Positions 9,449 to 30,823 of a stretch of 64,000 nt of DNA are shown here, in pieces. Below the pieces are notes generated by a model. It worked only from the letters and a program-made list of their open reading frames with translations. It was not told where the DNA came from and made no database searches. This DNA comes from a virus. The stretch lies in the IMG/VR virus record IMGVR_UViG_3300043172_001413; one strand, written 5' to 3'. Every line of letters begins with the position of its first letter. The first letter of the stretch is position 1. The position numbers and the translations under genes are program-made.

Positions 9449-9522
9449 GCGCCCGTAAGCTCAGTTGGTAGAGCGGCGGCCTCTATTTCCGCTGGTCGGG
9501 GGTTCGATTCCCTCCGGGCGTT
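9449..9522 (+). tRNA. tRNA with anticodon CUA (amber-suppressor-like)
   Basis: GCGCCCG acceptor (G1-U72 wobble), D-arm GCTCAGTTGGTAGAGC, anticodon stem GCGGC/TCCGC, loop CTCTATT giving 34-36 = CTA, T-arm GGGGGTTCGATTCCCTC; followed by T-run. Confidence 0.55.
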
Positions 9523-9525
9523 CTT

Positions 9526-9704: not shown

Positions 9705-10751
9705 TTAAAGGAAAACTTTTTGAATATCATGTCTTTTATTCATGCAGTTTGACATGAAAACATTACAGTCATAATGATTTACTATCGCATTACGATAAAA
9801 CAGAGCGGTTTTTGCATCAATGGGTTTAAAACTGTGGCAATCAACGCCTACGTTCAATCCATTTTCTTTGACCATTTGGAGTTTATGGATATGGCCAAAT
9901 AAAAAGAAATCTATCCCTTCACCTTCTTCAGGTGCGTGGATTAAACGGAAAGCAATATTCTCTAACATAAGCAGAAAGTTATTTTTTATGATAATGACTC
10001 TGCTGTCCTCTTCAAGTTTTGTTATAGTAGGTTCTTTGTCGTAGTTGCCTGGTAAAATGTAAACACGTTCTCCTTTTAAATGTTGGAGCATTTTAGGATT
10101 ACCGAAATCTCCTAAATGGTACACTGTGTCTTTATCGGTTACAAGGGCATTCCACTGTTTTACCATCTCCCAGTCCATTTCTTCTACAGAAGAAAAGGGT
10201 CGTTTGGATAACTGTAATGTTCTTTCCTCTCCAAAATGCGTGTCGGAAGTGATAAAGACATTCATTACCGGGCCAGTTAGCTCTCTCAATTTAGTGAGAG
10301 CGTTATCGATACAGACAGAAAGAGTCTCAGCCCATGATATCTCTGACCTTTTACATCTTTCTTTAATGTACCTGAGATGTGGAGAATCAGAAGGGGCACC
10401 TACTGCTATTTTCCCGGAATTTAGCCACTCACCAAATTCAATATTAGTAGTAAAAGCTGGAAGAATCTCATTTCTTGGTATCCAGAACAGGATCACTTTA
10501 GAAATGCTCATAGCTTTTCTTTCCCAGTCTACCTGTCGGCTGTATGTCCAGTCTTCCGGTTGGCAATCGTCAGGGTATTCTGGGATGTAAACCACACCAT
10601 CGAATTCTTTCTCTTCTAACATTGTAAGAGCAGAGTGTCTCCATCCTTTAGGAACTATACCCCCTTTTGCAACTCTGTATGTAGGTCCTGCTAAGTAGAT
10701 AGAATCAGTACTTTCTTCCACCATTTTATCTAAAACATAACTTTTTAACAT
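9705..10751 (-). CDS. fusion protein: N-terminal nucleoside 2-deoxyribosyltransferase/DNPH1-like domain (tentative) + C-terminal calcineurin-like metallophosphoesterase
   Basis: N-terminal SIYLAGP motif; C-terminal MPP motifs SDTHFGE, GDFGN, GNYD, GHIH. Confidence 0.55.
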   Translation of the reverse strand: MLKSYVLDKMVEESTDSIYLAGPTYRVAKGGIVPKGWRHSALTMLEEKEFDGVVYIPEYPDDCQPEDWTYSRQVDWERKAMSISKVILFWIPRNEILPAFTTNIEFGEWLNSGKIAVGAPSDSPHLRYIKERCKRSEISWAETLSVCIDNALTKLRELTGPVMNVFITSDTHFGEERTLQLSKRPFSSVEEMDWEMVKQWNALVTDKDTVYHLGDFGNPKMLQHLKGERVYILPGNYDKEPTITKLEEDSRVIIIKNNFLLMLENIAFRLIHAPEEGEGIDFFLFGHIHKLQMVKENGLNVGVDCHSFKPIDAKTALFYRNAIVNHYDCNVFMSNCMNKRHDIQKVFL

Positions 10752-11429: not shown

Positions 11430-11735
11430 TTATATTTTATTTGATTTTGATTCAAAATTGTTCTGGGCTTCTCTGGAAAACTTGAAATGAGGGACTTTGT
11501 ACTCCGGGATTTCAATCACCTTCCCCGTTCTCGGATTGCGGCCTACTCGGGGTCTTCTATTTTTTACGCAAAAAGCACCGAATCCGCGAATTTCTATACG
11601 CTGTCCTTCAGATAAAATTTTTAAAATCTCGTCAAGAAAGGCCTCTACTGTTATTTTGATGTCATTGACCGGTTTATTATCGAGTTTTTTTGATATCCGA
11701 TTACATAAATCCAGTTTGGTAGCATTATCGCTCAT
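11430..11735 (-). CDS. HU/IHF-family DNA-binding protein
   Basis: RGFGAF...RNPRTGK signature arm. Confidence 0.75.
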   Translation of the reverse strand: MSDNATKLDLCNRISKKLDNKPVNDIKITVEAFLDEILKILSEGQRIEIRGFGAFCVKNRRPRVGRNPRTGKVIEIPEYKVPHFKFSREAQNNFESKSNKI

Positions 11736-12206: not shown

Positions 12207-12770
12207 TTAGTTTCTCCTGAATGTATGAAATCCAAAGACGGCAACTTTTGGCTTTTTGTAAAAGAACTGCTCATCTATGAAATGGACTTTATCAGCATAC
12301 ATTTCAAGAGCAGTGTTATAACATTCCTTAAAACTCCATATTTCCACTTTTTTCTTTTTCTGTTTAAGATATTTGCACAGGTCTGCAAAATCACCGTCCC
12401 CTGACATCAGTATCCATTTATTGAAAGTGTTTATTCTATCCATGCAGTCTACGGTAATATTGACATCATGATTTGAATTCTGATATATCGTTTTTTTTGT
12501 ACTTGTGGATACATCCCACTTCGTGAATTTGGTGACATTTTTTGCTTTGATGTCATATCCGATAGTTTTTAATTTTGCTTCAAATTTTGTGCTGTCAAAA
12601 TCCGCTCCTCTGACCAGATAAATAGAGGCAGCAGTTAGTATCTCTGTTTCGCGGTCACTGAAGAAGTGCCATACTTTATCAAAGTCTATTTTCTGTCCCT
12701 GATTTCTCGCTTCAAAGAATAGGTTTTGAAGATCAATTTGCATGTATGTTGCTGCGTGATAATCACTCAT
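12207..12770 (-). CDS. NYN/LabA-like (PIN-fold) nuclease domain protein
   Basis: IDLQNLF, VDCMD and SGDGDF motifs of NYN domain. Confidence 0.55.
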   Translation of the reverse strand: MSDYHAATYMQIDLQNLFFEARNQGQKIDFDKVWHFFSDRETEILTAASIYLVRGADFDSTKFEAKLKTIGYDIKAKNVTKFTKWDVSTSTKKTIYQNSNHDVNITVDCMDRINTFNKWILMSGDGDFADLCKYLKQKKKKVEIWSFKECYNTALEMYADKVHFIDEQFFYKKPKVAVFGFHTFRRN

Positions 12771-13387
12771 TTAATTTTCTCCATGATAAGACCGTTTTTT
12801 GATTCTCTTACTCTGTAAACATGATCAGCGTTATGTTGAAACTCCGTTTGATGCGTAACTAAAAGGACATCTAAACCGATTTTTTTTGAAAGTTCACTAA
12901 TTAGATTTCCGGTATTAGCTATATATTCTTTCCCTACGGCAGCGAATGTTTCATCAAGGATCATAAGTTTGGCGGATTTTTTCTTTAACAGACATAATAC
13001 GCGCAGAAGAAAACTTTCTATGACAGCGACACTTCCTCCAAACGATTTGTAACCTCCTTCAACACCATCGTTATTGGTTTTTAGTTCAATGTATATTTTT
13101 TCATTTTTCTTTGTAATTTCCGGTGTGAATGTTAAATTTTGGTCCTCAAAAATGGTCTTCAGACCATAGGTGATAAGACCTGCCATACGTGCGACCTCAT
13201 CTTTGACCATGATATCCAGAAGATGCTTTAATACTGTACTTGCTTTCATATCTCGGTCAATATCTTTTTTCAGGGTGTCTACAGTCTCTGTCAGTTCCTT
13301 CTCCTGTAGGCAGTAAGCCTGATAGAAACCATCTATCTGGTCGGTTTTCCGCTGCAGGTCTTTTACAGAATTTAACTCACTGATCAT
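12767..13387 (-). CDS. Rad50/SbcC-like ATPase, C-terminal lobe only (short coiled coil + signature/Walker B/D-loop/H-loop)
   Basis: FGGS signature-like, LMILDE Walker B, VTHQ H-loop; no Walker A. Confidence 0.55.
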   Translation of the reverse strand: MISELNSVKDLQRKTDQIDGFYQAYCLQEKELTETVDTLKKDIDRDMKASTVLKHLLDIMVKDEVARMAGLITYGLKTIFEDQNLTFTPEITKKNEKIYIELKTNNDGVEGGYKSFGGSVAVIESFLLRVLCLLKKKSAKLMILDETFAAVGKEYIANTGNLISELSKKIGLDVLLVTHQTEFQHNADHVYRVRESKNGLIMEKIK

Positions 13388-14532
13388 TTAACAATCCTGG
13401 CTAATGTCATGAGACCTATTGCAGTAAAAGATTTTTTTACCGGTTCTTTATCATCTTCTTCTATAATTATTTCAGCATTGCTATAAATGAAGCATTTATT
13501 TTTAGCAATGAAAACCTCTACATTTGAGGCTTTGAATTGATTAAGGACTGCTTTGAATTTGTCGCATTGTATGATAAAGTAAAGGGGTTCCTCTGAGTTA
13601 CATTTACATGGCACTGTTTCAAAGGAGGGCCTTTCCCCCACAGTTTCCATTTCCAGATTTTCGTTATCCTTTATGGTCATCTTTATACCCACATCTTCCC
13701 AGGATGTCAGAGAGAGTCTGTTAAGCTTCTTCAGGAAAAGGGTACGTTCGATATTAAATTTCGGAAGTTTTGGCTCCTCTGTAGAGATAGGGAACTTTGG
13801 GGTATTTGCAAGGGATTTCCTGAAACCAAAGCAATACCGGTCATCAGGAGAATAGAAAGTTATAAGTTTATCTGAAATCTTTATTGCAACTTCTGATGCC
13901 TCTGATTTTTCGACCATAGTCACAAGGGGTGACAGGATGGATTTACGCAGAATTAAATTGGGAGAGCCCTCTATGTCAGGGCTTGTGAAAGCTCCTACCT
14001 TTGTATTTCCATTGGCACCGTAAAACGCGTTGTTCAGGACAAAGAGATTAGAGAATTTTTCATCCTTTTCATTTAAGAATCCTTGTATAAATTTAATACC
14101 GTCAAGAAGCACCTCAATGTTAATAGTATGTTGAAGTTCTTGAGAGGAGAGGTTGAGTGACAGGAATTTTTTCGGATCAAAAGAAGCGAAGGATAGAAAG
14201 GACTTCTTGTTTTCAGAAGTATAAACTTTTAAAGTCTTTGTTTCTGGCTCATAAGTAAAACTGGTCTTTGATGAACCTGAGCTACTGAGAAGTTTATAAA
14301 GATTTTTAGGTTCTGCTGTAAACTGGATTCCTTCTCCTTCAAGTTCGATGTCACTAATAGAAAAATGAGATGTTGCTACTTTATCCTCATCAGTGGAATA
14401 GAGAGTGCCCTCATCTCCTTTTATGGAAAAAAGAGCATGACTCTGAATATGAGTCGATATCTTTCCGGTAGCGAGAGCTACTATTGATAGTGCTTTCTTT
14501 AACTCCGCCGTTTCTGTCGTAAATTTGATCAT
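13384..14532 (-). CDS. dnaN: DNA polymerase III beta sliding clamp (DnaN-like)
   Basis: N-terminal MIKFTTETAELKKALSIVALAT...DGTLYSTDEDKVA parallels DnaN MKFTVEREHLLKPLQQV...DGTLSLTGTDLEM; 382 aa. Confidence 0.55.
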   Translation of the reverse strand: MIKFTTETAELKKALSIVALATGKISTHIQSHALFSIKGDEGTLYSTDEDKVATSHFSISDIELEGEGIQFTAEPKNLYKLLSSSGSSKTSFTYEPETKTLKVYTSENKKSFLSFASFDPKKFLSLNLSSQELQHTINIEVLLDGIKFIQGFLNEKDEKFSNLFVLNNAFYGANGNTKVGAFTSPDIEGSPNLILRKSILSPLVTMVEKSEASEVAIKISDKLITFYSPDDRYCFGFRKSLANTPKFPISTEEPKLPKFNIERTLFLKKLNRLSLTSWEDVGIKMTIKDNENLEMETVGERPSFETVPCKCNSEEPLYFIIQCDKFKAVLNQFKASNVEVFIAKNKCFIYSNAEIIIEEDDKEPVKKSFTAIGLMTLARIVK

Positions 14533-14533
14533 T

Positions 14534-14794
14534 TTATACCTCTATAAGATTAAGTTTTTCCTGTGTTTCTTGTACCTGAGTTTCAAGTTCTCCCAGTAAT
14601 TTCTCTAACTGTTTCTCCTTCTCTTCCCTGATTTCAGTCAGTTTCTTTGGGTCATAACCTTTTTCATTGATCTCAGTCAGGAGTTTTTCCAGGTTTGCTT
14701 TCTCAGTTTTAAACCTTTCTTCTAACCGGATCTTTTGATCAGACATTTGATTTATGTCCTCTTTGATTTTCGTGAATCTCTGTGTATCGTCCAT
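14534..14794 (-). CDS. small coiled-coil protein
   Basis: 86 aa, E/K-rich heptads. Confidence 0.4.
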   Translation of the reverse strand: MDDTQRFTKIKEDINQMSDQKIRLEERFKTEKANLEKLLTEINEKGYDPKKLTEIREEKEKQLEKLLGELETQVQETQEKLNLIEV

Positions 14795-14809
14795 GTGTAC
14801 CTCTTTATG

Positions 14810-15640
14810 TTAAAATCCCAATTCAACTATTTCGCCATTACTTTCCAGATCTATTTTTGAACTTCTCTTTCGACTCACCCTGCTTTGCTCACCCTCTGTG
14901 CAACCAGTAAAATATTTGCAGTATTTACAGGATTTTGCGCTTGGGGTAGGTTTATGTTCTGCTTTTACCATCTCTTTCACGTCCAGAGATAGTCTGGCTC
15001 TGAAATCATTAAGAATATCCATATCCATTTCTACCGGAACCAATGTATTGAAGCGGTAATAGAAGAACCCTAATGCTATCGGTAATTTATTAAATCTGAA
15101 ATAATAAAGGAATGTGTAGAAATAAAGCTGGTCGTTACTGATATTCTTTCCTATTTTATTGGTTCCCTTTCCATCGAATATTGTATCCTCATTACCTACT
15201 TGGGATGTATGGAGAAAGTCCAGCCGACCTTTTATTTTATGAGAATCCTTAAGGATTAATCCTATACTGACTTCTGATTTTGTATTAAAGAAATAATTTT
15301 TGTTCGGAGAGTCCATTATAATGCATATGTCCGTATGCGCCTGTTCAAATATCTCCTCTTTTGAATCCTTACAATAAGGTGCACCCCAATTCACGGTACT
15401 TGATTTTAAGATATCATGATAAATAAAAATCATCTTTCGCCGGACAGCTTCAGGAGAGAGACTGGGAGTTTTAAAGCGCCATATATTACAGTACAATTCA
15501 AAAAACTTTTCCGTCAGACGGCCATAAAGAGTGAAATATTCATTGATAGGTTCAGTCGGAGGGTCATCTCGGACATATTGTTTATAGAATTTTTTAGGGC
15601 ATTCAGTGTAAGCTTTCCAGGAATGGTATGTTATATTCAT
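14810..15640 (-). CDS. Cas4/RecB-family PD-(D/E)XK exonuclease with 4-Cys Fe-S cluster
   Basis: N-terminal YTECPKKFY Cys, C-terminal CKYCKYFTGC triad. Confidence 0.55.
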   Translation of the reverse strand: MNITYHSWKAYTECPKKFYKQYVRDDPPTEPINEYFTLYGRLTEKFFELYCNIWRFKTPSLSPEAVRRKMIFIYHDILKSSTVNWGAPYCKDSKEEIFEQAHTDICIIMDSPNKNYFFNTKSEVSIGLILKDSHKIKGRLDFLHTSQVGNEDTIFDGKGTNKIGKNISNDQLYFYTFLYYFRFNKLPIALGFFYYRFNTLVPVEMDMDILNDFRARLSLDVKEMVKAEHKPTPSAKSCKYCKYFTGCTEGEQSRVSRKRSSKIDLESNGEIVELGF

Positions 15641-16614
15641 ACAGAGACCTCCTGGATAAAATAGAGTACCCGGTCCCGCACTATCTTTGCCATGTCCATA
15701 GTTTCTATAAGCTCATCAATGGTTTTTGTGCTGTCAATGGATTCTTCCATGGCTTCCGAAGCAAGTTTTTCGACAAATAATCTCATTTCCTCTTTTTCCA
15801 GATCTTCCTGTTCTCTTTTAACAAGGTCAAAAACTTCGGACGCAGGTTTAACTTTAAGATTAATTGATCGCAGAGTATAAATAGGTTTGTTATCTTCAAC
15901 GGTTATTTTTATAAAACCTATTTGAGGGTTATGATCAATATCTTCCTCGGATAGAGCACCCCTAGCCAGAGATCCTATATTAACGAAATATTTACCATTC
16001 GGTTCCTGATGAATCCCTTGGTCAATGTGATAATGACCAAGGACGAAAATATCAGGTGAGAATTCGCTCAGTTCATCATATCCATAGAGTCTTTCTTTGA
16101 AGAGCATACCACCCTTTAAACTGGTGTATAGGTGCATTGCACATATTTGGCTGATACAATCACCCTTATCAGGTATTTTCAAGGTCTCAAGATCAAGTCC
16201 TTCTGTATAGGGCACCCCGATCAGCGATATTTTTATCCCGTCTTTCTCGATAATTTCTTCTCTGAGCTGAAGTAATGTTTTGTCAGCGAACAGGACACCT
16301 AATGGTTGTTCTTTTATGCTTTCTAATCGGTTCGCTGTTAGGTCGTGGTTTCCTTCTATCATATAAATAGGACAGTTAAACTGGTTGAATACCCTTATCA
16401 GCTCTATATTTAGGTTATGGCTGTTTCTGGTTGGGTTCTTTAAATTAAAGAGGTCACCGGCAATAACTGCGACATCTGCATTCAGTTTATTACAAGCCAT
16501 GCACATCTGACTAATTTTACCCAGTATGGCGCTCTTAAAATCATCGATTCTGGATCGAGGCCCGTTATCACTGATATGTATATCATTTGCTGTAATTATA
16601 ATAAATTCTGTCAT
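15637..16614 (-). CDS. sbcD: SbcD/Mre11-family nuclease
   Basis: Phosphoesterase motifs DIHISD, GDLFN, GNHD, GHYH. Confidence 0.75.
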   Translation of the reverse strand: MTEFIIITANDIHISDNGPRSRIDDFKSAILGKISQMCMACNKLNADVAVIAGDLFNLKNPTRNSHNLNIELIRVFNQFNCPIYMIEGNHDLTANRLESIKEQPLGVLFADKTLLQLREEIIEKDGIKISLIGVPYTEGLDLETLKIPDKGDCISQICAMHLYTSLKGGMLFKERLYGYDELSEFSPDIFVLGHYHIDQGIHQEPNGKYFVNIGSLARGALSEEDIDHNPQIGFIKITVEDNKPIYTLRSINLKVKPASEVFDLVKREQEDLEKEEMRLFVEKLASEAMEESIDSTKTIDELIETMDMAKIVRDRVLYFIQEVSV

Positions 16615-17795
16615 AGGGGTCTCTCACACAAAGGGCAAACTTTGATTTCTTCCTTTTCTTTTCTCTTCTGTTTCAGTTTTTCTGTGACTTCTCTTAATTC
16701 GTCACGAGTCGTTTTTGTTTCAACGGCTAATTCAGAGAATGCCTCCTCCAGAAACTCCGCCTCATGAAATTCTTTAAATGTCCTTTCCGCTTCTTCGACT
16801 GTTGCAGTTACCCCATTCATGTCAAAATTATCGAGGATCTCTTTTTGCTGTTTGATTCCCTTAATTAATTTTGTGGCTGTATCATCCCATTCACAGAGCT
16901 GGTCTACTTCCTTCACCAGAGAGTCAATTTTTGTTATTTTAGGGACTCTGAGTTGAGAGACACCCTTTAATTTCTCCACAATACCAGCTAATTCTCTGTG
17001 TTTTTTTTCTTTCTCTCTGAGCCACTGTACATCATTGATTGCTCTTTCAAACGGGCTACTGTCTGGGATTACTACTTGGGTGATTCTCCGGAGAACTGAT
17101 AAGGATTCTGTGAGCTCTTTTATTTTTTTTTCATAATCAACAAGAACAAGTATCTCAGAACTCAGATTTTCAGTCTCTTTCTCTTTTTCTACCAATATGG
17201 CAACTGTTTCTTTTATTTCTTCAAAATCAGCGAACGCTTTAAGACTCTCCTTTATAGCCTGCAGATCAGCTTCCCGGGTCTTTAACATAGATTTCTGAGA
17301 TTTTATTGTTTTTTGGCATAGGTCATCGGCCTTACTCAGGGTGTCGATGTTATACAGTTCTGCCAGTACCTCTGTTACCACAGAACCCGGTTTATCTACC
17401 AGGAAGAGTTCATCGAACTGAGAAGCTATAAAGGGAAAGACTTTTTTATCTCCTACTACCATCTTTCCAAAACCTGCACGAATTAATGGCGGCGGAACAT
17501 CCCTGTTCAGTTTTGAATAGACTTCCTTTTCTTTTCCGTTATAAATAGTGTAAGTAGCAGATGCCCCTTTCACCCATTCGACATCTATATCATCACGTTT
17601 TATTTTTACGGTGGTTTTCTTCTCTCCGTGCCGGATAAAACTTTTACCTGGTTGATTGGCTAGAGGGGCTTCGAGTGCCCTTATTATGGCACTCTTACCT
17701 ATATTGTTTTTACCGGTGATAACGGTGAAGCCGTCAATCTCAAAAGAGACATCCTTTATGCTTTGGTAATTCTTAATTGTAACTTTAGTTGTCAT
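16611..17795 (-). CDS. Rad50/SbcC-like ATPase, N-terminal lobe + ascending coiled coil ending at zinc hook
   Basis: Walker A GKNNIGKS, Q-loop, about 250-aa coiled coil, terminal CPLCERPL zinc-hook. Confidence 0.6.
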   Translation of the reverse strand: MTTKVTIKNYQSIKDVSFEIDGFTVITGKNNIGKSAIIRALEAPLANQPGKSFIRHGEKKTTVKIKRDDIDVEWVKGASATYTIYNGKEKEVYSKLNRDVPPPLIRAGFGKMVVGDKKVFPFIASQFDELFLVDKPGSVVTEVLAELYNIDTLSKADDLCQKTIKSQKSMLKTREADLQAIKESLKAFADFEEIKETVAILVEKEKETENLSSEILVLVDYEKKIKELTESLSVLRRITQVVIPDSSPFERAINDVQWLREKEKKHRELAGIVEKLKGVSQLRVPKITKIDSLVKEVDQLCEWDDTATKLIKGIKQQKEILDNFDMNGVTATVEEAERTFKEFHEAEFLEEAFSELAVETKTTRDELREVTEKLKQKRKEKEEIKVCPLCERPL

Positions 17796-19014
17796 CAGGG
17801 TCTTCTTTTTGTTTCTTTTTTTGGTTCTGCTTTGAGATGAAATCCTCGGCTACATTGGACATCAAATCATCCATTTCATCGGGTGGCTCATCTTCTACAT
17901 TCTGGTACTGTGCTTTTGTTGTTTCATCCTGTTTAAAAACGAGGGAACTCTGAAGTTTCTCAAATGCCCTTTCGTTGTCATTGAATGCTTGCCATAGTGC
18001 CTCTTTTCCCTGAGCTTTGATGATAACTTCATCATTCTGCTTGAAGGTGAAAAAAGCACCGCCTTTGGTAATGACTTTAGTGTTCATGGCAAGTTCAATA
18101 ATGGACCTGACATTATCAATACCTTCACCGAAACGGATGAAAATGGGAGCCTGAAAATAAGGGCGGTCGATCTTATTCTTAATAACGGTAGCTTTAATGG
18201 TTATGTTGACCGGTTCTTTCTCTGCTTTACCCGTGATCTTGCTCTGTACAGCTACTCTTTCAACAATGCCCAACTTTAGTTTTAATCTGACTGAGGAATA
18301 ATATTTTAAAGCTCTTCCGCCTGGTGACTCTTCCATAGGTCCGGACTGAAATTTTGATGTTTTTATAACATCTCTCATCTGGTTAATGTAGATCAGGCAG
18401 ACATTACTGGCTTTTAGGAATTTAGTGATATACTGCAGAAAAGTTGATTGAAGCTGTGCTTGCAGCCCAATGCGTCCAGCTTCATCTATAGCACCTTCCA
18501 GATATTCTTTTGGGACCATGGCTGGTACACTGTCCACAACGATGATATGTGGTTTTATATACAAAAAATCTCTGATTTGTCGTATACCCTGTTGGAAATG
18601 GACAGGTTCGGTCACGATAAGTTTACTTCTTCTCAAATCAAGACCCATCTTTTCCGCATATCCTTTATGGAATGTCTGCTCGAAATCAAGAAGGCATCCA
18701 AAGCCTCCCATTTCCTGTGCTTTTCTGATAGCACTAAGCGCTATTGTTGTTTTTCCGGAAGACTCGTCTCCTATGATTTCAACAATGGCTCCTCGGGGAA
18801 ACCCACCTGGCTTTCTGGTCATAGAGCCATCACCAATAATCTGATCGAGAACCCATGAACCGGTTGGGACAAAGTCTATAGTTTCTTCTTTTTGAAGATC
18901 GCGGATTGTTGCCAGATCTTCTTTATGTAATTTTTTAAAAAATTCTTCCTGCGTTAAAGGTTTCTTCTTTGCTTTAGAAAATTCTTCCTGCGTTGAAGGT
19001 TTCTTCTTTGCCAT
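17785..19014 (-). CDS. RecA/UvsX-like recombinase
   Basis: AIVEIIGDESSGKTTIAL parallels RecA IVEIYGPESSGKTTLTL; VVDSVPAM and YINQMR. Confidence 0.8.
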   Translation of the reverse strand: MAKKKPSTQEEFSKAKKKPLTQEEFFKKLHKEDLATIRDLQKEETIDFVPTGSWVLDQIIGDGSMTRKPGGFPRGAIVEIIGDESSGKTTIALSAIRKAQEMGGFGCLLDFEQTFHKGYAEKMGLDLRRSKLIVTEPVHFQQGIRQIRDFLYIKPHIIVVDSVPAMVPKEYLEGAIDEAGRIGLQAQLQSTFLQYITKFLKASNVCLIYINQMRDVIKTSKFQSGPMEESPGGRALKYYSSVRLKLKLGIVERVAVQSKITGKAEKEPVNITIKATVIKNKIDRPYFQAPIFIRFGEGIDNVRSIIELAMNTKVITKGGAFFTFKQNDEVIIKAQGKEALWQAFNDNERAFEKLQSSLVFKQDETTKAQYQNVEDEPPDEMDDLMSNVAEDFISKQNQKKKQKEDPDDN

Positions 19015-19714
19015 TTTTTATCTCCTCTGCAATTTTGTCCGAATTTCTTTCTCTTTTTGTATAGTCAAAGAACTGATCATTTTCACGATAGATTACCCCG
19101 GTGTATTCTGTCAGTCCTTTCTTATTTCCTCTTTTAAAAGTGTGCTTTCCACAAAACAATTTTCGCTCTCTTTCGGTTAATTCATCGTCTGTGTATTTTC
19201 TCATGAAATACCATTGATAGAATTTTAATCCGAGTTTTCCAATGAAATAAGCGTCAGCCACATGTTCAGAAAATCTTCTTCCCATGAGGTCTAACTCTTT
19301 CTTAGCCTGGTGTGTGATGTGGTGTTTGGTTACATCAGCCAGTTTTATTTCAGGAACAGCGAACCTTTTTAAGGTTTGGGGCTGTACATACAGAACAAAA
19401 ATTTTCTCGTCCAGAAATACCTCATGTATATGCTGGTTCAGAGCAAAGAGTAGTTCTGTATTAAAATCCTGTAAATACGGTGCTTCCATTGATATGAATT
19501 TTATATTTCTTGATCTCAGTAATGCGCGTACTTTTTCTCTTTGTGTTATCAGGCGTTCTACCAATAGACCGTCAGCCGGACTTGTTTTAAATACACCTCC
19601 TTCTAGGACTGCTTCTTTCCCTGTTTTATTTTCATCAAGGACTACCCATCCTAAATGGGTTAATGAAGGGTCGAATCCTGCTATCATAATTTTAGAACAT
19701 GTACCGGTCTCCAA
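18974..19714 (-). CDS. RuvC-like Holliday junction resolvase
   Basis: N-terminal IMIAGFDPSLTHLGWVV catalytic-Asp motif. Confidence 0.55.
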   Translation of the reverse strand: METGTCSKIMIAGFDPSLTHLGWVVLDENKTGKEAVLEGGVFKTSPADGLLVERLITQREKVRALLRSRNIKFISMEAPYLQDFNTELLFALNQHIHEVFLDEKIFVLYVQPQTLKRFAVPEIKLADVTKHHITHQAKKELDLMGRRFSEHVADAYFIGKLGLKFYQWYFMRKYTDDELTERERKLFCGKHTFKRGNKKGLTEYTGVIYRENDQFFDYTKRERNSDKIAEEIKNGKEETFNAGRIF

Positions 19715-19753: not shown

Positions 19754-20377
19754 CTAAACTGTATCCAGAACATTATCCAGATCAAGTTTTTGTGTTGGGT
19801 CTGTCCCTACTGTACCAGAGATACCGAGCAGTTCATTAATTTCTTCAACTGACAGATCATTGGCAATGGATTTTTTAATGTAATCCCAAATAGGTTTGGC
19901 TTGTTCCAGAACGGTTTTTTTAAACGGATCCTTAGCCGTCCATATGGATTCATTGCAAGGCGTAATATCCAGATGCTGGTACTCTTCATTAGTACAAGCT
20001 ATCTTAATATCATGAGTTGCAAGAGGGAATTCACCATTAACCTGTTTCAGTTTTAAATAAGTCTGTTCGCTGAAAATCCACGGAAACAGCTCATAGGTAA
20101 ACGGTTTTTTGACATTTCCTTGTTTATCTGTCCCGTATTTCACGAGGACAGCTCCTACACGCCATTTTGATGGCCCAAGGACATCACAGCATTTTCCCTT
20201 TTTGCAGAGGAAAAATCTGTCCTTGAAATGGATTTTTGAGCCGACAAACATCGCTTTGGGGTCCGTGTATACAATGGCATTTCTGTGGACTTCGCTCTTT
20301 TTGCCTTTGTATTTCTCGAACATCCCTCCTTTGATGTCTTCGTTCTCAAATCCAAAGACTTCAAGTTGTTCAGGCAT
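19754..20377 (-). CDS. hypothetical protein
   Basis: 207-aa ORF. Confidence 0.45.
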   Translation of the reverse strand: MPEQLEVFGFENEDIKGGMFEKYKGKKSEVHRNAIVYTDPKAMFVGSKIHFKDRFFLCKKGKCCDVLGPSKWRVGAVLVKYGTDKQGNVKKPFTYELFPWIFSEQTYLKLKQVNGEFPLATHDIKIACTNEEYQHLDITPCNESIWTAKDPFKKTVLEQAKPIWDYIKKSIANDLSVEEINELLGISGTVGTDPTQKLDLDNVLDTV

Positions 20378-20388
20378 TTTTACACTCC

Positions 20389-21387
20389 TTAGTTTTTGGT
20401 TGGTTGAAAACTGTCAAGTAAATCATCGAGATCCATACCTGTTTCTACAGTGTGGCGTTCTTTTTGGTTCTCCGCCACTTCAATTTTTATTTGAGTTTCA
20501 GTTTGTGATTTCTCTTCTTTCCCTCCTTCTTGTATAATTTTTTCACTTGTCACAAACAATGCATCCAAATCAATTTCTTTATTTTCCAGTTCCGGTGCTT
20601 CAATCACTTTCTCTACTTCGAGAACAGTTTCCTGATCAATCACGGGCCAGTCATCCTCTATTTCGATAGGCGACTCTCCGTCTGTATCAGGGCTGAGGTT
20701 GGGAACAGGGTCAATAAGTTTTTCTGCCATCTCTTCTTCAGAAGGTTTTGGCTCTTCCTTCCCATCAAGGAGGCTCTCAACATCTAAAGAAGTTGACGGA
20801 TCTACTACTTTTTCTTCTTCTTCTTCCTCTTCAGCTTCGGCATCTCCAAAAGAATCTTCACCGATGGTACTCTTCTCTAGCTCTTCCAACATGCTCTTAG
20901 CAGCATAGTTTGTAGAGGGTCCGACACCACCGATCTTTGCCTGAGCTTCAAATATCCTTAATTGCATCTTAATATCATTATTAGCCCTGTTTAGATTTCT
21001 TATCTTCAGGTTAATAGATTTTAAGAGATTATTAAGATCAGTTACATCATTTTCATATTCAGTGACTTTGACTTGTTCTTCTCTGAGGAGCATGTTAGCC
21101 GCGGCCTCCCTATCCTTTATAGACGGGAGGTTTTTAACTTCACTATTGTTAGTAAAAATATCACTCTTTTTTACTTCAAGCGCAGCCGTGGCATTATTTA
21201 GAGCCTGCTGCTTTATTGAAATCTCTTTACTGATCTTGATACTGAAGTGCTCGATTTCTTCAATAAAAGCATGGCACTCCCCGATCTTCTGATTGATTGC
21301 CGCAGGGTTGGGTATGATTTCGATGTCTATCGTAAACCGTATCTCAAGCAGACGGTCATAAATTGTATTTCTATATGCAATTTCCAT
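20389..21387 (-). CDS. coiled-coil protein with poly-Glu acidic tail
   Basis: EEEEEEEK tract. Confidence 0.45.
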   Translation of the reverse strand: MEIAYRNTIYDRLLEIRFTIDIEIIPNPAAINQKIGECHAFIEEIEHFSIKISKEISIKQQALNNATAALEVKKSDIFTNNSEVKNLPSIKDREAAANMLLREEQVKVTEYENDVTDLNNLLKSINLKIRNLNRANNDIKMQLRIFEAQAKIGGVGPSTNYAAKSMLEELEKSTIGEDSFGDAEAEEEEEEEKVVDPSTSLDVESLLDGKEEPKPSEEEMAEKLIDPVPNLSPDTDGESPIEIEDDWPVIDQETVLEVEKVIEAPELENKEIDLDALFVTSEKIIQEGGKEEKSQTETQIKIEVAENQKERHTVETGMDLDDLLDSFQPTKN

Positions 21388-25673: not shown

Positions 25674-27741
25674 GTCCCTGCTCGGGTTCTAACTTCTCTT
25701 CAGGCTCTTTTTCTGGGGTGTAATTTCCGGCTATTTTAAGAAATTCTTTTTCGGTGATTACTTTTACCCCATATTTTTCTGCTTTCACAGATTTATTCGA
25801 TCTTTTATCTTCATTGCACACGAGATAAGATAGACCTCTAACTATAGATTTTTTATTTGTACCACCCAGTTGAGTCACTATCGCCTGATAGTATGAGCGT
25901 GGTTTTTCCATAGTTCCAGTAAAACAGAAAGATATGCCCCCCAATACCCGGAGAAAAAACGGCACGATAAGTGTTTCCTCATTACCTTCAACTTGCAATG
26001 AAATTATTGTTAAGAGAAAATTAATTTCTTCTTTATTTTTTAATAATCCTGCCACAACTTTACTTGCAGATATATCTGAGAATCCCTTCAGTTTTACAAT
26101 ATCTTCTACGCTTCTTTCCATCAGATTATCGATGGTTTCAAAAGCCTGTAGGAGTTCTGCCGATGTGCTTTCTGAAATACTGGGAATACCCAGCGCACAC
26201 AGGAATTTCTCAGATGACATATTTTTAGTTTTAATTATATTATCAATAATTTTTTTTGCTGATTTCTCACCCCATCTTTCAATTGAGCTGATATGAGACG
26301 ATTTGAGACGATAAATATCCGCTATACTGTTTAGTGTACCCATGTCATACAATTCTTGAGCCAAGCTCTGACCGAAAGTGTCTATTTCAGTAACTTTAAT
26401 CCAGTTTAAAATCCTGAAGAATATTTTCCGGGAACAGTCATCATTTAAGCATCGGAGAGTAGTGCCGTCATTCTCAAGTTTCAAACCACAGCTGGGACAT
26501 TCCGTTGGGATCTTTATAGGATTACCTTCATGTTTCAGGACGGCCTCGATTTTCGGAATGATATCACCCCTTTTAACTAACATAACAGTGTCACCACGAC
26601 CTATACCCAGTCTTTTTATTTCAGCAACATTATGTAGGGTAGCCTTTCTTATTATTGAACCTTCTATCTCAACTGGTTCAAGATTTGCCAGAGGGGTAAC
26701 AACCCCGGTACGGCCCACATCCCATATTTCTTTATGAAAAATAGTGGCAGATCCTGGAGGTTCGAATTTCCATGCCTTCTGTGCCTTCGGTTTATTCCTT
26801 GTCATACCCATAGCTTTCTGTATCTCTTGGGAGCAGACTTTTACTACCACACCATCAATATCATAAGACAGAGTTTTCCTGCTTCTTTCAATAGATTCAT
26901 AAGCTGTGATTATTTTCTCCGGATTCCCAATAAACTGAACGGGAGTATAAAATCCTAATTTCTTCAGGGTTTTAATTTTATCAGGCTCATCAATAGCTCT
27001 ATTTATATCATAAGTAACTATCTGGAGATATTTGGAAAATTTACCGTCATATCTCCTGCTTATACCTGCTGCAGCATTCCGTGGATTAGAATATTTTTTC
27101 TCTTTAGGAAGAACTTGATTTATCCTGTTAAAATCATTCTTACTTAATAATATTTCAGCTCTCACCGAGCCGGTAAAGAAAAAACCTGGGTATTCAGCAG
27201 GTTTCATAATATCAATCATGCCGGCATCACTCATATCTTTTAATGCCTCTCCTGTCACAGGCATAGCTTTTTTTCTGAAACCGCGCATAAAAGCTACATT
27301 CTGACTTATCTCCTCACCCTCGATACCATTACCCCGGGTAATCGCTTTCATAAATTCAGAATCTTTATAGTCAAGAGAAATACTTAAACCATCAAGTTTA
27401 AATTGCAGGCAAAATAAAGTATCTTTCTCGAACTTTGACACCCATTTCAGGAAATCTTCTCTGGTATGAACTTTATCTAGGCTACCCATGAAAATACCAT
27501 GACCCGCTTTTTTCCAGGCAGAAGAAGCAGGATGACCCACGGTATCAAAGAAAGGGTGGTCAGGATCGTGTTTTCTTACCATGTCTTCCAGAGAATCATA
27601 TTCTTCATCGGTCATTATAGCATGACCAGTGCCATAATAAGCTTTTCGAGCTTCGACAAGACGTTCTACGGCAGATTCTATGTTATACACCACCTGGTCC
27701 ATTCCCTTCTTCAGTGTCATCCTCATCTTCAATGAGAGCAT
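25636..27741 (-). CDS. ligA: NAD-dependent DNA ligase
   Basis: KLDG adenylation motif, Zn-finger Cys cluster CPSCG...C, C-terminal BRCT-like region; 701 aa. Confidence 0.85.
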   Translation of the reverse strand: MLSLKMRMTLKKGMDQVVYNIESAVERLVEARKAYYGTGHAIMTDEEYDSLEDMVRKHDPDHPFFDTVGHPASSAWKKAGHGIFMGSLDKVHTREDFLKWVSKFEKDTLFCLQFKLDGLSISLDYKDSEFMKAITRGNGIEGEEISQNVAFMRGFRKKAMPVTGEALKDMSDAGMIDIMKPAEYPGFFFTGSVRAEILLSKNDFNRINQVLPKEKKYSNPRNAAAGISRRYDGKFSKYLQIVTYDINRAIDEPDKIKTLKKLGFYTPVQFIGNPEKIITAYESIERSRKTLSYDIDGVVVKVCSQEIQKAMGMTRNKPKAQKAWKFEPPGSATIFHKEIWDVGRTGVVTPLANLEPVEIEGSIIRKATLHNVAEIKRLGIGRGDTVMLVKRGDIIPKIEAVLKHEGNPIKIPTECPSCGLKLENDGTTLRCLNDDCSRKIFFRILNWIKVTEIDTFGQSLAQELYDMGTLNSIADIYRLKSSHISSIERWGEKSAKKIIDNIIKTKNMSSEKFLCALGIPSISESTSAELLQAFETIDNLMERSVEDIVKLKGFSDISASKVVAGLLKNKEEINFLLTIISLQVEGNEETLIVPFFLRVLGGISFCFTGTMEKPRSYYQAIVTQLGGTNKKSIVRGLSYLVCNEDKRSNKSVKAEKYGVKVITEKEFLKIAGNYTPEKEPEEKLEPEQGLVEDCGTLFNEE

Positions 27742-27985
27742 AATTAAACTGATTCATAGTCTCTTGAGTATGTTCCATCATTTTTAAAATATGTTCTTTC
27801 AGATTCTCTCTTAAAGGATCATCATCTTTAAGAGACATATAGGCATCAAGAGATTTAGAATAAATATCTGAGATAGCTAACATTTTACACCTGATAGCTT
27901 CTATTATAATGATAATAGGGTCATGTTTATTATATTCCTTGTCCATGAAGTCTTTAAAATCTTCGTCACCGAATTTCTTAGTCAT
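27683..27985 (-). CDS. acidic hypothetical protein
   Basis: 100-aa ORF. Confidence 0.4.
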   Translation of the reverse strand: MTKKFGDEDFKDFMDKEYNKHDPIIIIIEAIRCKMLAISDIYSKSLDAYMSLKDDDPLRENLKEHILKMMEHTQETMNQFNYALIEDEDDTEEGNGPGGV

Positions 27986-28158
27986 AGATTCTCTGCTCCG
28001 TGGTAATAAGTATCATATATATGGTAGTCTTTTTAGGCTCCTTTCTTAAACTATTTTTTAAAAAAAATTGTAACTCCAGTTTTTTGAACTCTATAGAGTA
28101 ACATTTTTATAAACATAATACATAGCAGGAAATTAGCAACTACAAAAGTAATTATTAT

Positions 28159-28178
28159 AATACACACTGTGTATTATT
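28159..28178. promoter_or_regulatory. palindromic operator-like site AATACACAC/TGTGTATT in divergent control region
   Basis: 8-bp arms, perfect; between minus and plus gene blocks. Confidence 0.35.
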
Positions 28179-28195
28179 TTTCCTTCTAAAGAAGT

Positions 28196-28242
28196 AATCA
28201 GTAAAAAGAAAAGATATAGAAAAAGGACTCGGTTCATATAAG
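28196..28242 (+). repeat. 47-bp direct repeat copy A
   Basis: Identical to 29145-29191. Confidence 0.9.
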
Positions 28243-28329
28243 GGAAAGTATGAAAATCAGAAAATGAATTTTTTTTAAAAAAAGTTTAAGACGAGGTACT
28301 GAAATCTGTACCATTAATTAATAAGGGGG

Positions 28330-28707
28330 ATGAACATGAACTGTATTCTTATTGGTAGCCCAGATAAAATATCTCTAAACAACTTTGTTAAGTTCCTGAA
28401 AAAAAGTCTTAATGAATATAGAATAGGTGTTATGCATTCTTTAATGTCTGCTAATTCTGTTCGATTATATATGGAAGACTTCTTGGAAAAGAACCCCAAG
28501 GCCATGTTTACCTATTACGCAAAACGAAAAGTGGGTATTGATCCGTTGACATGTTTTCCGACTTATGCTCAGGAAAGAGCAGATGTTGTTATCTGGTTTG
28601 ATCTTTATTCTACTGAACCAAAATTGGTGAAGGACCGGTTTAATGTAATGAAACAGACTATTAAGGATTGGAATAAATATATAGAGAGTATATCTGGTAA
28701 TATTTAA
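28330..28707 (+). CDS. hypothetical protein
   Basis: 125-aa ORF with AAGGGGG RBS and upstream GTACCATT motif. Confidence 0.5.
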   Translation: MNMNCILIGSPDKISLNNFVKFLKKSLNEYRIGVMHSLMSANSVRLYMEDFLEKNPKAMFTYYAKRKVGIDPLTCFPTYAQERADVVIWFDLYSTEPKLVKDRFNVMKQTIKDWNKYIESISGNI

Positions 28708-29144
28708 TGAAAGGAGGTATTACTTCTCGGAGAGAGAATACGTCCAGTACATAGAGAAAATTAGGGCTAAAATACAGGGGGCAGTATCTTGTCGGGACCA
28801 TAAAGGCTACGGCCGGTGACCGGAGGTACTGATCTGCTATGGGTAGAATCCCTATAAATTTCCTTCCATACAGGTTGTAGTGGACCAAATTCGTTGCCTG
28901 AAAGATATTACGAATTATGGGGGTGTTTATAACAGGTGCAGTAAAATTACTGTGGCTTGGGGGTTAAGCTGATACTGAGGATGCTGTGTACTGATTGTGG
29001 AGATTAAAGGATTTTCCCGCTCTATTCTACTATGAATAGTAGAAACGAAAACACTCGACAACGAAAAAAAGGCGTTGGAGTTCCCTTCGCCAACGAAGAG
29101 AAAGCGGCCAAAAGAGGCAGAAGGTTTGCTACTAACTACCAAAA
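28708..29144 (+). other. ORF-poor, relatively GC-rich structured segment; candidate non-coding RNA
   Basis: No ORF of 60 aa or more on plus strand; strong RBS AAAGGAGG without ATG; inverted repeats GGCCGGTGACCGG, TTCTACTAT-GA-ATAGTAGAA, CGTTGG...CCAACG. Confidence 0.25.
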
Positions 29145-29191
29145 AATCAGTAAAAAGAAAAGATATAGAAAAAGGACTCGGTTCATATAAG
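29145..29191 (+). repeat. 47-bp direct repeat copy B
   Basis: Identical to 28196-28242; 45 nt upstream of next gene start. Confidence 0.9.
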
Positions 29192-29229
29192 AACAATACT
29201 ACCAATTATTTACAAGAGAGATCCGGGAG

Positions 29230-29526
29230 GTGAAGATGGGTGTTACAATGTTAACGGCATTGATTATTCAATCAAGAGGTGATGATGTTAAATGTGAATA
29301 TACCGGGCCAGATAAGGACGGTATGTATACCGGTTGGATAAATCTTTATAGAGACGAAGAATATGATCACCCGTTACTGGATTCCGGACCAACGTTTAAG
29401 GAAAAGAAAATTGCTATTGAAACAATGGAGGGTATTGTAGTTCAGATAAGGGAAATTGATTTAAACCCTCCGCGGGAAGTTAAAGAAGCTATGAGTGTTG
29501 CACAACAAGTCAAGAATGCAATTTGA
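29230..29526 (+). CDS. hypothetical protein
   Basis: 98-aa ORF, GGGAGG RBS. Confidence 0.5.
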   Translation: MKMGVTMLTALIIQSRGDDVKCEYTGPDKDGMYTGWINLYRDEEYDHPLLDSGPTFKEKKIAIETMEGIVVQIREIDLNPPREVKEAMSVAQQVKNAI

Positions 29527-29582
29527 TCTTTGAGAATTAATGAGTATCCCAGAAGATCATAAGAAACATTACCGGCGAAACT

Positions 29583-29849
29583 GTGGAGGAGGTTCAAAAA
29601 GAGATGCCTATGAACAATGATGTTATGGGAGTCTTTATTAAATTTGGTGAATCTATTCAGACCTCCTTCACGGGTCTAAAGTCTCCGGGCAGGATCTGGG
29701 AAACCGCCTTTAATGGATCATCCCGGGTTGCAAAACCGGAAACTGGTAAGAAATACCCATATCAGAAAGTTGAAGAAGAAAAACCTAAAAAAGAACCAGA
29801 AAGACCTGTGTTTAATCGGTACAGAGCTTTGATTGATAAAAATGAATAG
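29583..29849 (+). CDS. hypothetical protein (TAG stop)
   Basis: 88-aa ORF, GGAGG RBS. Confidence 0.45.
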   Translation: MEEVQKEMPMNNDVMGVFIKFGESIQTSFTGLKSPGRIWETAFNGSSRVAKPETGKKYPYQKVEEEKPKKEPERPVFNRYRALIDKNE

Positions 29850-29860
29850 AGTCAATTTTA

Positions 29861-30823
29861 ATGTTATCTTCTGTAATTGGTCACGAACAGCTGAAGGAAA
29901 AATTGTCTATTCGTTTAAAAGAGCATCCGGCTGGGGTGTTTCTTTTTTGCGGTCCTGCCAGTATTGGTAAACGTACGACTGCTTTTGAAGCGGCAAAATA
30001 TATTCTGTGTGAAGATAAGTCTGAGGAAAAGTGTTCCTGTCAATCCTGTAAAAGATTCAAATCGGAACACCCTGATTTCTTATGTGTGGGCCGGCATGAG
30101 AAAATTAAAGTACACGATGTTGATTCAATAATTAATTTCAGTTCTACCGCTCCATTGATTTCGGATTATAAAGTTGTTGTTCTTGATAATGCTCATGAAA
30201 TAACTCCGGAAGCTGCGAACCGGTTATTGAAGAGACTGGAGGAACCTCCGCCGAAGTTTACTTTTATTTTAGTTACTTCAAACCCACAGTATCTTATTCC
30301 TACAGTATTATCCCGGTGCATAAAATATGAATTTGGTAATTTAAACCGTGATGAACTCACTACTATAATAAGGAAGAAACTGGGTTTTAGTTCTAAAAAG
30401 TCTGAGGTACTGGGGCTACTTGCTGTGGACTCTTCGTTGGATGTTTTTAAGAATGCTGGCCACTATTTGAAATACCGGAAAATGGCTGTTGAATTCCTGT
30501 CGGAAATAAAAAGTCGTTCTCTGATTGATTCTCTTGATTATGTGGATAAGATTGAGAAAGAGGATATACCGATTTTTATCGATATGATGATGCTGTTACT
30601 GACTGATTTTCTTCTCCTGAAAAATAATATTCCAGAGATAACCAACAAAGATATGGAGGAGGATCTAATAAAGATTGCGAAGCACATAAATGATAAAGCT
30701 CTTATAGGGGTTGTGGGAATGTTTAGTCAGATAAAGAGATATTTATATCTCAATATTAATTTGAACCTTTATTTGAAAAATGCAGTTATAAAGAGTTATC
30801 CTTATTTCATGGCGGACGTATGA
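29861..30823 (+). CDS. holB: DNA polymerase III delta-prime clamp-loader subunit
   Basis: FCGPASIGKRT, zinc module CSCQSCKRFKSEHPD, SRC motif. Confidence 0.65.
   Translation: MLSSVIGHEQLKEKLSIRLKEHPAGVFLFCGPASIGKRTTAFEAAKYILCEDKSEEKCSCQSCKRFKSEHPDFLCVGRHEKIKVHDVDSIINFSSTAPLISDYKVVVLDNAHEITPEAANRLLKRLEEPPPKFTFILVTSNPQYLIPTVLSRCIKYEFGNLNRDELTTIIRKKLGFSSKKSEVLGLLAVDSSLDVFKNAGHYLKYRKMAVEFLSEIKSRSLIDSLDYVDKIEKEDIPIFIDMMMLLLTDFLLLKNNIPEITNKDMEEDLIKIAKHINDKALIGVVGMFSQIKRYLYLNINLNLYLKNAVIKSYPYFMADV

Follow-up and report, generated by a model that had tools for sequence, protein, structure and literature searches.

Can a Rad50-type ATPase be assembled from polypeptides that are encoded by separate genes? 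This question is raised by a stretch of viral DNA of 64,000 nucleotides (IMG/VR virus record IMGVR_UViG_3300043172_001413), here called the window, which represents the replication and recombination region of a huge phage. An initial annotation, made from the sequence alone, had read two separate open reading frames (ORFs) of this stretch as the N-terminal and the C-terminal part of Rad50/SbcC; they are referred to as N-piece and C-piece in the following. According to current models, Rad50 couples ATP binding in its head to the gating of the nuclease via a continuous coiled coil, which is closed by a zinc hook. We consider it likely that the region encodes a phage Mre11-Rad50 nuclease, similar to SbcCD and T4 gp46/47, in which the Rad50-type ABC ATPase is formed from separate polypeptides. 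Mre11-Rad50 biology as such is expected in phages; what stands out is a naturally split Rad50/SbcC, probably of three subunits, with a hook motif at the end of a chain and a modular arm.

Two genes carry complementary halves of an ABC ATPase head

The N-piece (394 amino acids, aa) was claimed to contain a Rad50 N-lobe with Walker A motif, Q-loop and helical arm, and all of these are borne out by its translation, by Pfam and by its structural model. Among 85 homologues, G28, G33 and K34 are invariant and S35, A124, Q126 and F127 are nearly so. Only two generic Pfam models pass the cut-off, AAA_23 (8e-10) and AAA_15 (1.9e-9), and the PHROG family of the protein is phrog_16465 (“exonuclease”), separate from the family of the C-piece. 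The C-piece, said to be a separate ORF of 206 aa about 3.2 kb downstream, was recovered as such: it lies 3,223 bp from the N-piece, and its translation contains the signature-like FGGS, the Walker B motif LMILDE and the H-loop THQ. Invariant residues in 71 homologues are G117, G118, S119, L144, D145, E146, T147, F148 and T178. The protein matches phrog_15167 (“ATPase”, a profile of 211 positions) with an E-value of 8.5e-14, and Pfam SMC_N with its last third only (positions 150–218 of the 220 in the profile; E = 1.6e-4, below the cut-off). The motifs of the two proteins are complementary, each half being without what the other half carries.

Structures of both proteins were modeled with AlphaFold2 using family alignments. 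The model of the C-piece (predicted local distance difference test, pLDDT, of 87) shows a helix of 78 residues followed by an alpha/beta lobe. In the model of the N-piece (pLDDT 83), the lobe is followed by arm helices at residues 137–186, 191–236, 247–276, 288–323 and 326–383 and then by a short hairpin bearing the CPLC motif. These arm helices are modeled confidently without a partner chain, and confidence is low at residues 121–160, the region where the absent C-lobe and its stalk would pack. When the models were compared to the PDB using Foldseek, the N and C chains of the same Pyrococcus furiosus Rad50 constructs headed both lists. The best matches of the C-piece are the Rad50 C chains 9a9j_B, 1ii8_B, 1f2t_B and 3qkr_B (E-values of 2e-9 to 1e-8), followed by C fragments of SMC heads; those of the N-piece are the Rad50 N chains 1f2u_C/A and 9a9j_A, with RecN next. 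A phmmer alignment between the C-piece and the C fragment of P. furiosus Rad50 likewise runs, residue for residue, from the signature region up to and including the H-loop. When the PDB was searched by sequence, single proteins and family profiles alike gave only weak matches to Rad50 and SMC proteins (E-values of 1e-3 to 1e-2).

Similarity of the head fold alone cannot tell Rad50 from SMC proteins or RecN. The assignment to Rad50 is, therefore, based on the Foldseek ranking together with the coupled SbcD partner and the terminal CPxC, and not on the head fold alone. Motifs and fold indicate the bipartite ABC head of a Rad50, with the caveat of a missing signature serine, and the Mre11/SbcD nuclease typically linked to Rad50 is encoded by an overlapping sbcD gene. 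On the other hand, the two lobes are not joined in one chain by an intramolecular antiparallel coiled coil, as they are in Rad50, but are encoded by separate genes in all homologues found. What would characterize SMC proteins or RecN was not found in the split ATPase: a hinge is missing, a CPxC terminates the arm and the partner is SbcD.

The six ORFs from the N-piece to the C-piece are located on the minus strand, and neighboring ORFs abut or overlap by a few bases (Table 1). All four genes named by the initial annotation as lying between the two pieces, i.e., those for SbcD, a Cas4-like nuclease, an 86-aa protein and a clamp-like protein, are present in the gap. No paralog of the N-piece, the C-piece or the small protein was found within the window.

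Table 1. Genes and sequence motifs of the split ATPase locus (window coordinates)
Feature	Position	Strand	Remark
RuvC-like resolvase	18974–19714	-	upstream of the recombinase gene
RecA/UvsX-like recombinase	17785–19014	-	RecA 4.4e-48, phrog_159 3.3e-18; directly upstream of N-piece
N-piece, Rad50/SbcC-like ATPase, 394 aa	16611–17795	-	N-lobe in residues 1–120, five arm helices, terminal CPLC
Walker A / P-loop TGKNNIGKS (N-piece)	17691–17717	-	from translation
Q-loop ASQFD (N-piece)	17412–17426	-	from translation
Tandem helical repeats of ~41 aa, residues 205–325 (N-piece)	16821–17183	-	I/V-P punctuation in each unit
CPLC, zinc-hook-like motif (N-piece)	16626–16637	-	four residues before the stop; protein ends CPLCERPL-stop
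SbcD/Mre11-type nuclease, 325 aa	15637–16614	-	start codon overlaps stop codon of N-piece
Cas4/AddB-like PD-(D/E)XK nuclease, four Cys	14810–15640	-	PDDEXK_1, Cas_Cas4
Small two-helix protein, 86 aa	14534–14794	-	central KGYDPKKL turn
Sliding-clamp-like protein, 382 aa	13384–14532	-	phrog_947, NCBIfam dnaN
C-piece of the split ATPase, 206 aa	12767–13387	-	stalk helix of 78 residues, then C-lobe
FGGS, signature-like motif (C-piece)	13031–13042	-	from translation
Walker B LMILDE (C-piece)	12950–12967	-	from translation
D-loop region ETFAAV (C-piece)	12935–12952	-	from translation
H-loop THQ (C-piece)	12848–12856	-	from translation
NYN-domain protein	12207–12770	-	downstream of C-piece

The arm of the N-piece is modular and ends in CPxC

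The arm of the N-piece contains tandem repeats, each unit consisting of a helix of about 30–35 residues after an I/V-P-D/K linker. In the window, the arm comprises approximately three units, two of which are recognized by a hidden Markov model (HMM) of the repeat, while the third is deduced from the V-P spacing. Insertions in homologs of the N-piece map to residues 286–320, and in one homolog (P0133) the I/V-P motif recurs with a period of 41 aa. N-piece lengths fall into classes of about 349, 390, 434 and 478 aa (including P0133, P0134 and P0144), with steps of approximately 41–44 aa, and the copy number found by the repeat HMM climbs with the length of the N-piece, the median length rising from 390 to 478 aa. 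An attempt to assign coil partners by bookkeeping of helix lengths was dropped, as the helix at residues 191–236 is itself partly a repeat unit according to the repeat HMM.

Almost all homologs of the N-piece, down to 26% identity, carry CP[LTAV]C within their last 4–25 residues. A terminal CPxC is also found in gp181 of the Tunturiibacter phage Tunturi_5, gp8 of the Bacillus phage 0305phi8-36, BC1852 of the Bacillus cereus prophage phBC6A51, the uncultured phage LR745208 and the metagenomic contig L012. The CPLC of the window resembles hook sequences of Rad50 such as CPVCGR and CPLCGS.

The split is conserved in many phage lineages

Megablast against phages and scans of IMG/VR with back-translated patterns gave no close relatives. 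Proteins of the window were found on a contig of 512 kb and relatives on contigs of 314, 470 and 497 kb; thus, the window belongs to a lineage of huge phages. In relatives with C-pieces of 63–68% identity, the gene order RecA, N-piece, SbcD, Cas4-like nuclease, small protein, clamp-like protein, C-piece, NYN and, further on, HU is kept. The order from RecA to the C-piece, with or without the clamp-like gene, is kept on contigs of 24–497 kb, including some in which the C-piece is detectable by profile only. The much more distant contigs L012 and L013 show RecA, N-piece (427 aa), SbcD, PDDEXK nuclease, small protein (95 aa) and C-piece (217 aa), without a clamp gene. The recA gene lies upstream of the N-piece in L005, L006, L012, LR745208 and Tunturi_5, with one gene in between in the last two, and is preceded by a RuvC-like gene in Tunturi_5.

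Homologs are far more numerous than chance would give. Of the matches above threshold, 120 of 211 were listed for the C-piece and 120 of 155 for the N-piece. Listed homologs of the C-piece are almost all 200–222 aa long, down to 61% identity, and those of the N-piece are mostly 345–491 aa long; none of the listed homologs carries the other lobe, all being stand-alone genes. Searching 1.84 billion representative proteins with the C-piece profile retrieved 2,945 proteins, 1,106 of these clusters at E ≤ 1e-10. The best 150 of the 2,945 matches range from 76 to 313 aa, nearly all of them having 190–255 aa and nearly all being stand-alone.

Separate genes for the two halves also occur in cultured or completely sequenced phages. 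In 0305phi8-36, a Metallophos domain and the N-piece form one protein, gp8, and the small protein and the C-piece correspond to gp7 and gp5; phBC6A51 encodes the N-piece (BC1852), the small protein (BC1854), the C-piece (BC1855) and SbcD (BC1857). The split was likewise found in PHBA67-T, in vB_BboS-125 and in the 485-kb genome of LR745208. Tunturi_5 encodes the N-piece as gp181, the small protein as gp180 and SbcD as gp177, with the C-piece (gp14) 108 kb away, and the Microbacterium phage Magritte encodes N-piece and C-piece as gp155 and gp2. All seven complete phage genomes with a match to the N-piece also have a match to the C-piece. Based on these results, the split is an old and widespread architecture. 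The initial annotation had suggested that gene fission or an ancient insertion might have separated the halves; the split is neither a recent fission nor a local insertion.

In the literature searched, no paper describing a split Rad50 or SbcC was found. A protein of 0305phi8-36 was described as a Mre11/Rad50 fusion lacking one P-loop segment, and the phage was reported to encode only this version of SbcC (Yoshida et al., 2011; PMC3175470). The missing segment is gp5, encoded three genes downstream.

Two further features were seen in the relatives. In L005, the 497-kb relative, an IS605 OrfB/TnpB (Cas12f-like) gene is found just upstream of recA, at the position of the RuvC-like gene of the window, and a second OrfB fragment lies nearby (754–2142 and 15011–15793); mobile elements are present within a huge-phage replication module. 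L012 (16536–19253) and L013 (13342–16059) encode a UvrD-like helicase of 905 aa with an intein splicing domain (PF14890).

A small two-helix protein belongs to the system

For the 86-aa ORF, the initial annotation had proposed that it may supply the descending coiled coil of a three-piece Rad50. A search with the protein gave 63 homologs of 83–90 aa with at least 51% identity, and their consensus consists of two helices connected by KGYDPKKL. Within the same contigs, the C-piece is the most conserved of the three proteins, followed by the small protein and the N-piece. A tblastn search of the 86-aa protein against the phage collection returned no match, and relatives in this collection were reached only via the family HMM. 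The latter detects gp7 of 0305phi8-36 (5e-11), in LR745208 an ORF directly preceding the clamp-like gene (1e-5), proteins of 95 aa in L012 (4.6e-19) and 90 aa in L015 (4e-15), and BC1854 of phBC6A51 (8e-5). In Tunturi_5, the product of the gene directly after the N-piece, gp180, is the best HMM match in the locus, with a non-significant value of 0.37. Across the distant lineages the protein measures 77–97 aa.

The small protein and the split pair co-occur in seven independently sampled lineages (five significant HMM matches and two weaker ones). The small gene usually directly precedes the C-piece or directly follows the N-piece. In L012/L013 and phBC6A51, no gene separates it from the C-piece downstream, and only the clamp-like gene intervenes in the window, LR745208 and L015. 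Since the small protein is homologous across lineages and adjoins the N-piece or the C-piece, it is a genuine third member of the system. To this extent the initial annotation was right to involve the 86-aa ORF, which may or may not supply the descending coil. The length of the N-arm varies by repeats of approximately 41 aa, while the small protein and the C-piece (about 201–217 aa) are near-constant and do not vary in step. This argues against a plain antiparallel pairing, one to one, of the three pieces over the full length of the arm.

A variant arrangement is seen in a protein of 313 aa (P0390), in which the C-piece is preceded by a helical stretch of about 100 aa with an acidic tail, in a minimal operon of N-piece (281 aa), SbcD (367 aa) and P0390. 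It looks like a fusion of the small protein with the C-piece, but the HMM of the small protein does not match this N-terminal extension and homology between the two is undetectable.

SbcD is a constant partner, the clamp-like gene is not

The SbcD ORF matches Metallophos (1.1e-7), the NCBIfam models for sbcd (3e-10) and Mre11 (2e-9), and Mre11 in the PDB (1ii7, 2e-5). It is linked to the N-piece in L005, L006, L012, Tunturi_5 and phBC6A51, in addition to the fusion in 0305phi8-36. The Cas4-like ORF matches PDDEXK_1 (6.7e-9), Cas_Cas4 (4.6e-4) and Cas4 of PADLOC (4e-7), and has one N-terminal cysteine (C14) and a C-terminal CxxCx5C (C238, C241, C247). With the nuclease core and these four cysteines, its sequence has the features of a Cas4/AddB-type Fe-S PD-(D/E)XK nuclease. 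The clamp-like ORF matches phrog_947 over its full length (2.7e-12) and dnaN of NCBIfam (1e-3), with neither a Pfam match nor a PDB sequence match.

The initial annotation took the co-location of these genes for an integrated module of end resection and replication restart. The Cas4-like gene is kept in the sampled metagenomic contigs of large phages (relatives of the window, LR745208, L012/L013 and L015); no Cas4-like gene is present in the examined operons of phBC6A51 and 0305phi8-36. Homologs of the clamp-like gene occupy the same position in L005/L006, L015 and LR745208, but in L012/L013 and the Bacillus phages (phBC6A51) no such gene separates the small gene from the C-piece. Although it recurs next to the C-piece in the huge-phage lineages, the clamp-like gene is missing from the module elsewhere; it is a lineage-specific insertion and not a core part, contrary to the initial annotation. 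Gp6 of 0305phi8-36 was considered as a relative of the clamp and rejected, as it shows no similarity.

As a separate observation, the C-piece lies a few genes from a clamp-loader gene in Magritte (gp4; L001, 284–2377) and from a sliding-clamp gene in Tunturi_5 (gp9; L002, 4019–8528), which echoes the adjacency of clamp and C-piece in the window.

Alternative explanations

Several observations weigh against the assignment to Rad50. Curated models for Rad50 and SbcC remain far below their cut-offs (NCBIfam PRK03918, 20 bits vs. 700; Pfam SbcC_Walker_B, 14 bits vs. 27). The signature motif is degenerate, reading FGGS in the window and [FR]GG[GSA] in distant relatives, without the canonical signature serine. 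In Tunturi_5 and Magritte, the genes for N-piece and C-piece are approximately 90–110 kb apart, and the N-piece of Magritte has no CxxC. Finally, only four residues point to a hook; a profile built from the 53 C-terminal residues reaches the Rad50 hooks 1l8d and 6zff at E-values of 0.2–0.33 only, amid coiled-coil noise. The initial annotation had let the ORF end exactly at a zinc hook. A conserved CPxC near the end of the protein was indeed found, but due to the non-significant match with solved hooks its identity as a zinc hook is plausible rather than established.

The degenerate signature also counts in favor of a rival reading, a split ABC ATPase of the SMC/OLD/AriA class that would have acquired its SbcD-type partner independently and would resemble Rad50 by convergence only. 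The best sequence-profile matches of the N-piece, to AAA_15/AriA (4e-16), Old and LmuB, point the same way. The OLD/AriA/GajA class (AAA_15) shares the N-lobe profile and likewise has helices inserted between the halves that carry Walker A and Walker B. However, members of this class are single polypeptides of defence systems, with a TOPRIM nuclease as partner or fused domain, and have neither SbcD nor a terminal CPxC. In contrast, the phage system has no TOPRIM partner and lies among recombination genes, not in a defence island; SbcD/Mre11 is adjacent and translationally coupled in every lineage, a long helical arm ends in CP[LTV]C, and Foldseek places P. furiosus Rad50 chains first for both halves. 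Convergence is, therefore, an unlikely explanation. Far less probable still is a spurious split or a gene in decay, whether through faulty assembly or sequencing, pseudogene formation, an intron, an intein or recoding. Recoding was considered since the window contains a suppressor-type tRNA(CUA), but the genes for N-piece, SbcD, clamp-like protein and C-piece end in TGA, not TAG, so that this tRNA is irrelevant to them; joining genes by read-through of TAG was rejected, as the relevant stop codons are TGA or TAA. Hundreds of independent contigs, as well as cultured phages, show the two halves ending at the same boundaries, the catalytic residues are invariant, and four conserved, functional genes lie between the halves. 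An intein, intron or frameshift that would join the pieces, for which the initial annotation had asked to check, is ruled out. No intein sequence is present, nor is there room for one, with the N-piece stopping four residues after CPLC and the C-piece starting with its conserved helix. Artefact, pseudogene and splicing were consequently rejected.

The part played by the small protein can be read in two ways. In one, Rad50 is an obligate complex of three polypeptides: the descending strand of the arm would be contributed in trans by the small protein together with the C-piece stalk, the hook would sit on a free C-terminus, and the repeats of approximately 41 aa would tune the length of the arm. 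We put this forward tentatively, as a possibility short of probable. In the other, Rad50 consists of two pieces with a self-sufficient N-arm, for instance a homodimer whose parallel coil is closed by the paired CxxC motifs, and the small protein is an accessory factor, which might, for example, serve as an adaptor that contacts SbcD, the clamp or DNA, or regulate the activity of ATPase or nuclease. The fixed size of the small protein (83–90 aa) next to a varying number of arm repeats argues for an accessory factor, as do the arm helices being modeled confidently on their own. Consistent with this, its HMM matches no N-piece or C-piece, and the extension of P0390 is not detectably homologous to it. 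On the other hand, the small gene directly upstream of the C-piece, as in L012/L013 and phBC6A51, is collinear with a descending coil followed by the C-lobe, and P0390 carries about 100 aa of additional helical sequence on its C-piece, while the N-piece of the same operon measures only 281 aa. Weighing these points, an accessory role appears quite possible, though less likely than not.

The tRNA mentioned above (9449–9523, plus strand) has the anticodon CUA, is of the amber-suppressor type, was labeled tRNA-Pyl by ARAGORN and lies on the strand opposite to its neighbors. TAG terminates 7 of the 54 long stop-to-stop ORFs, and reading it as a sense codon extends the long ORFs slightly, from 17,064 to 18,510 aa. 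In the window, recoding is not evident, although it may occur in other parts of the genome.

Other genes and sequence features of the window

In addition to the operon, the minus strand encodes endonuclease VII, DnaJ, HU, NYN, a RecD2-like helicase and an NAD-dependent ligase; clamp-loader subunits, ribonucleotide reductase, large terminase and tail fibre are encoded on the plus strand. Endonuclease VII (88–891) has an N-terminal zinc-finger-like region, and DnaJ (1995–2978) is complete with J domain, CXXCXGXG and C-terminal domain; the HU-like protein is found at 11430–11735, and the NYN-domain protein is an RNase. DnaJ, HU and NYN are syntenic in the 314–497 kb relatives. Between the RuvC-like gene and the RecD2-like helicase gene, two conserved ORFs of 207 and 332 aa (19754–21387, minus strand) show no family matches, the product of the longer one having a coiled coil in its N-terminal half and a highly acidic C-terminal half. 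A protein of 348 aa (9705–10751, minus strand) combines a nucleoside 2-deoxyribosyltransferase-like domain with a Metallophos_2 phosphoesterase and may act in nucleotide salvage or base modification.

At approximately 27741–29861, both coding strand and GC skew flip, with minus-strand genes to the left and plus-strand genes to the right. This divergent region of 2 kb contains a perfect direct repeat of 47 nt, the copies of which (28196–28242 and 29145–29191) are 949 nt apart, and A/T-rich palindromes around 28046–28073 and 28267–28286. It may harbor divergent promoters or an origin.

Discussion

The two halves are complementary, their split is conserved, the genes for N-piece, C-piece and small protein are inherited together with sbcD, and the catalytic motifs are intact. 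From these observations, we infer physical assembly, zinc binding, a role of the small protein and a biological pathway as follows. The N-piece would supply Walker A, Q-loop, the modular helical arm and the C-terminal CPxC, and the latter probably joins two arms via a shared zinc ion. The stalk helix, the degenerate signature, Walker B, D-loop and H-loop would come from the C-piece. Both pieces are predicted to assemble non-covalently into one head, in which the C-piece stalk would pair with the first helix of the N-piece arm, an arrangement known from the engineered two-chain catalytic domains of Rad50. The two-helix protein of approximately 90 aa would be the third subunit, most likely binding arm or stalk, and SbcD would be the nuclease of the complex.

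T4 gp46/47 and SbcCD process DNA ends and hairpins in an ATP-dependent manner. By analogy, the phage system is most likely a gp46/47-like end-processing nuclease for recombination-dependent replication. Its processing of ends and hairpins would depend on ATP and feed the RecA/UvsX-like recombinase, and the Cas4-like nuclease probably adds 5′–3′ resection. Together with this exonuclease, RecA/UvsX and the RuvC-like resolvase, the complex would prepare DNA ends for recombination-dependent replication and repair of a genome of approximately 0.5 Mb.

With T4 gp46/gp47 and E. coli SbcCD, the phage system shares an ABC ATPase with helical arm and CPxC, an adjacent SbcD nuclease of the calcineurin type and a neighborhood of recombination and replication genes with a UvsX/RecA-like recombinase. 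In contrast to gp46 and SbcC, which are one polypeptide with an intramolecular antiparallel coiled coil and the hook at its apex, it has separate genes for the two halves, a CPxC at a free C-terminus and a co-conserved protein of approximately 90 aa, and lacks the signature serine. Separate N and C chains also form an active head in engineered two-chain P. furiosus Rad50 (1F2T/1F2U, 1II8, 3QKR, 9A9J). However, these chains are laboratory truncations without most of the coil and without the hook, whereas the phage version is natural and conserved and keeps an arm and a hook-like motif. The genes gp8/gp7/gp5 of 0305phi8-36 and BC1852–BC1857 of phBC6A51 belong to the same family, with an N-piece ending in CPxC, small protein, C-piece and SbcD. 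They differ from the window by the SbcD domain fused to the N-piece in 0305phi8-36 and by the absence of Cas4-like and clamp genes inside the Bacillus operons, and their annotations do not go beyond exonuclease, ATPase or chromosome segregation ATPase.

The finding explains the “missing P-loop segment” of the Mre11-Rad50 fusion of 0305phi8-36, and gives a function to PHROG families labeled only “ATPase” or “exonuclease” as well as to a family of hypothetical proteins of approximately 90 aa. A two-chain head, a hook-like motif at the end of a chain and a small helical subunit suggest that the covalent loop of Rad50 may be dispensable. The split family offers compact, separable parts for tests of arm function, and its members include a prophage of cultivable B. 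cereus and 0305phi8-36, a cultured phage of Bacillus thuringiensis. If the three-polypeptide reading is true, thousands of phages would run Mre11-Rad50 without covalent continuity between hook and C-lobe, and would thus provide a natural test of whether signaling along the coiled coil and clamping of DNA need an unbroken chain.

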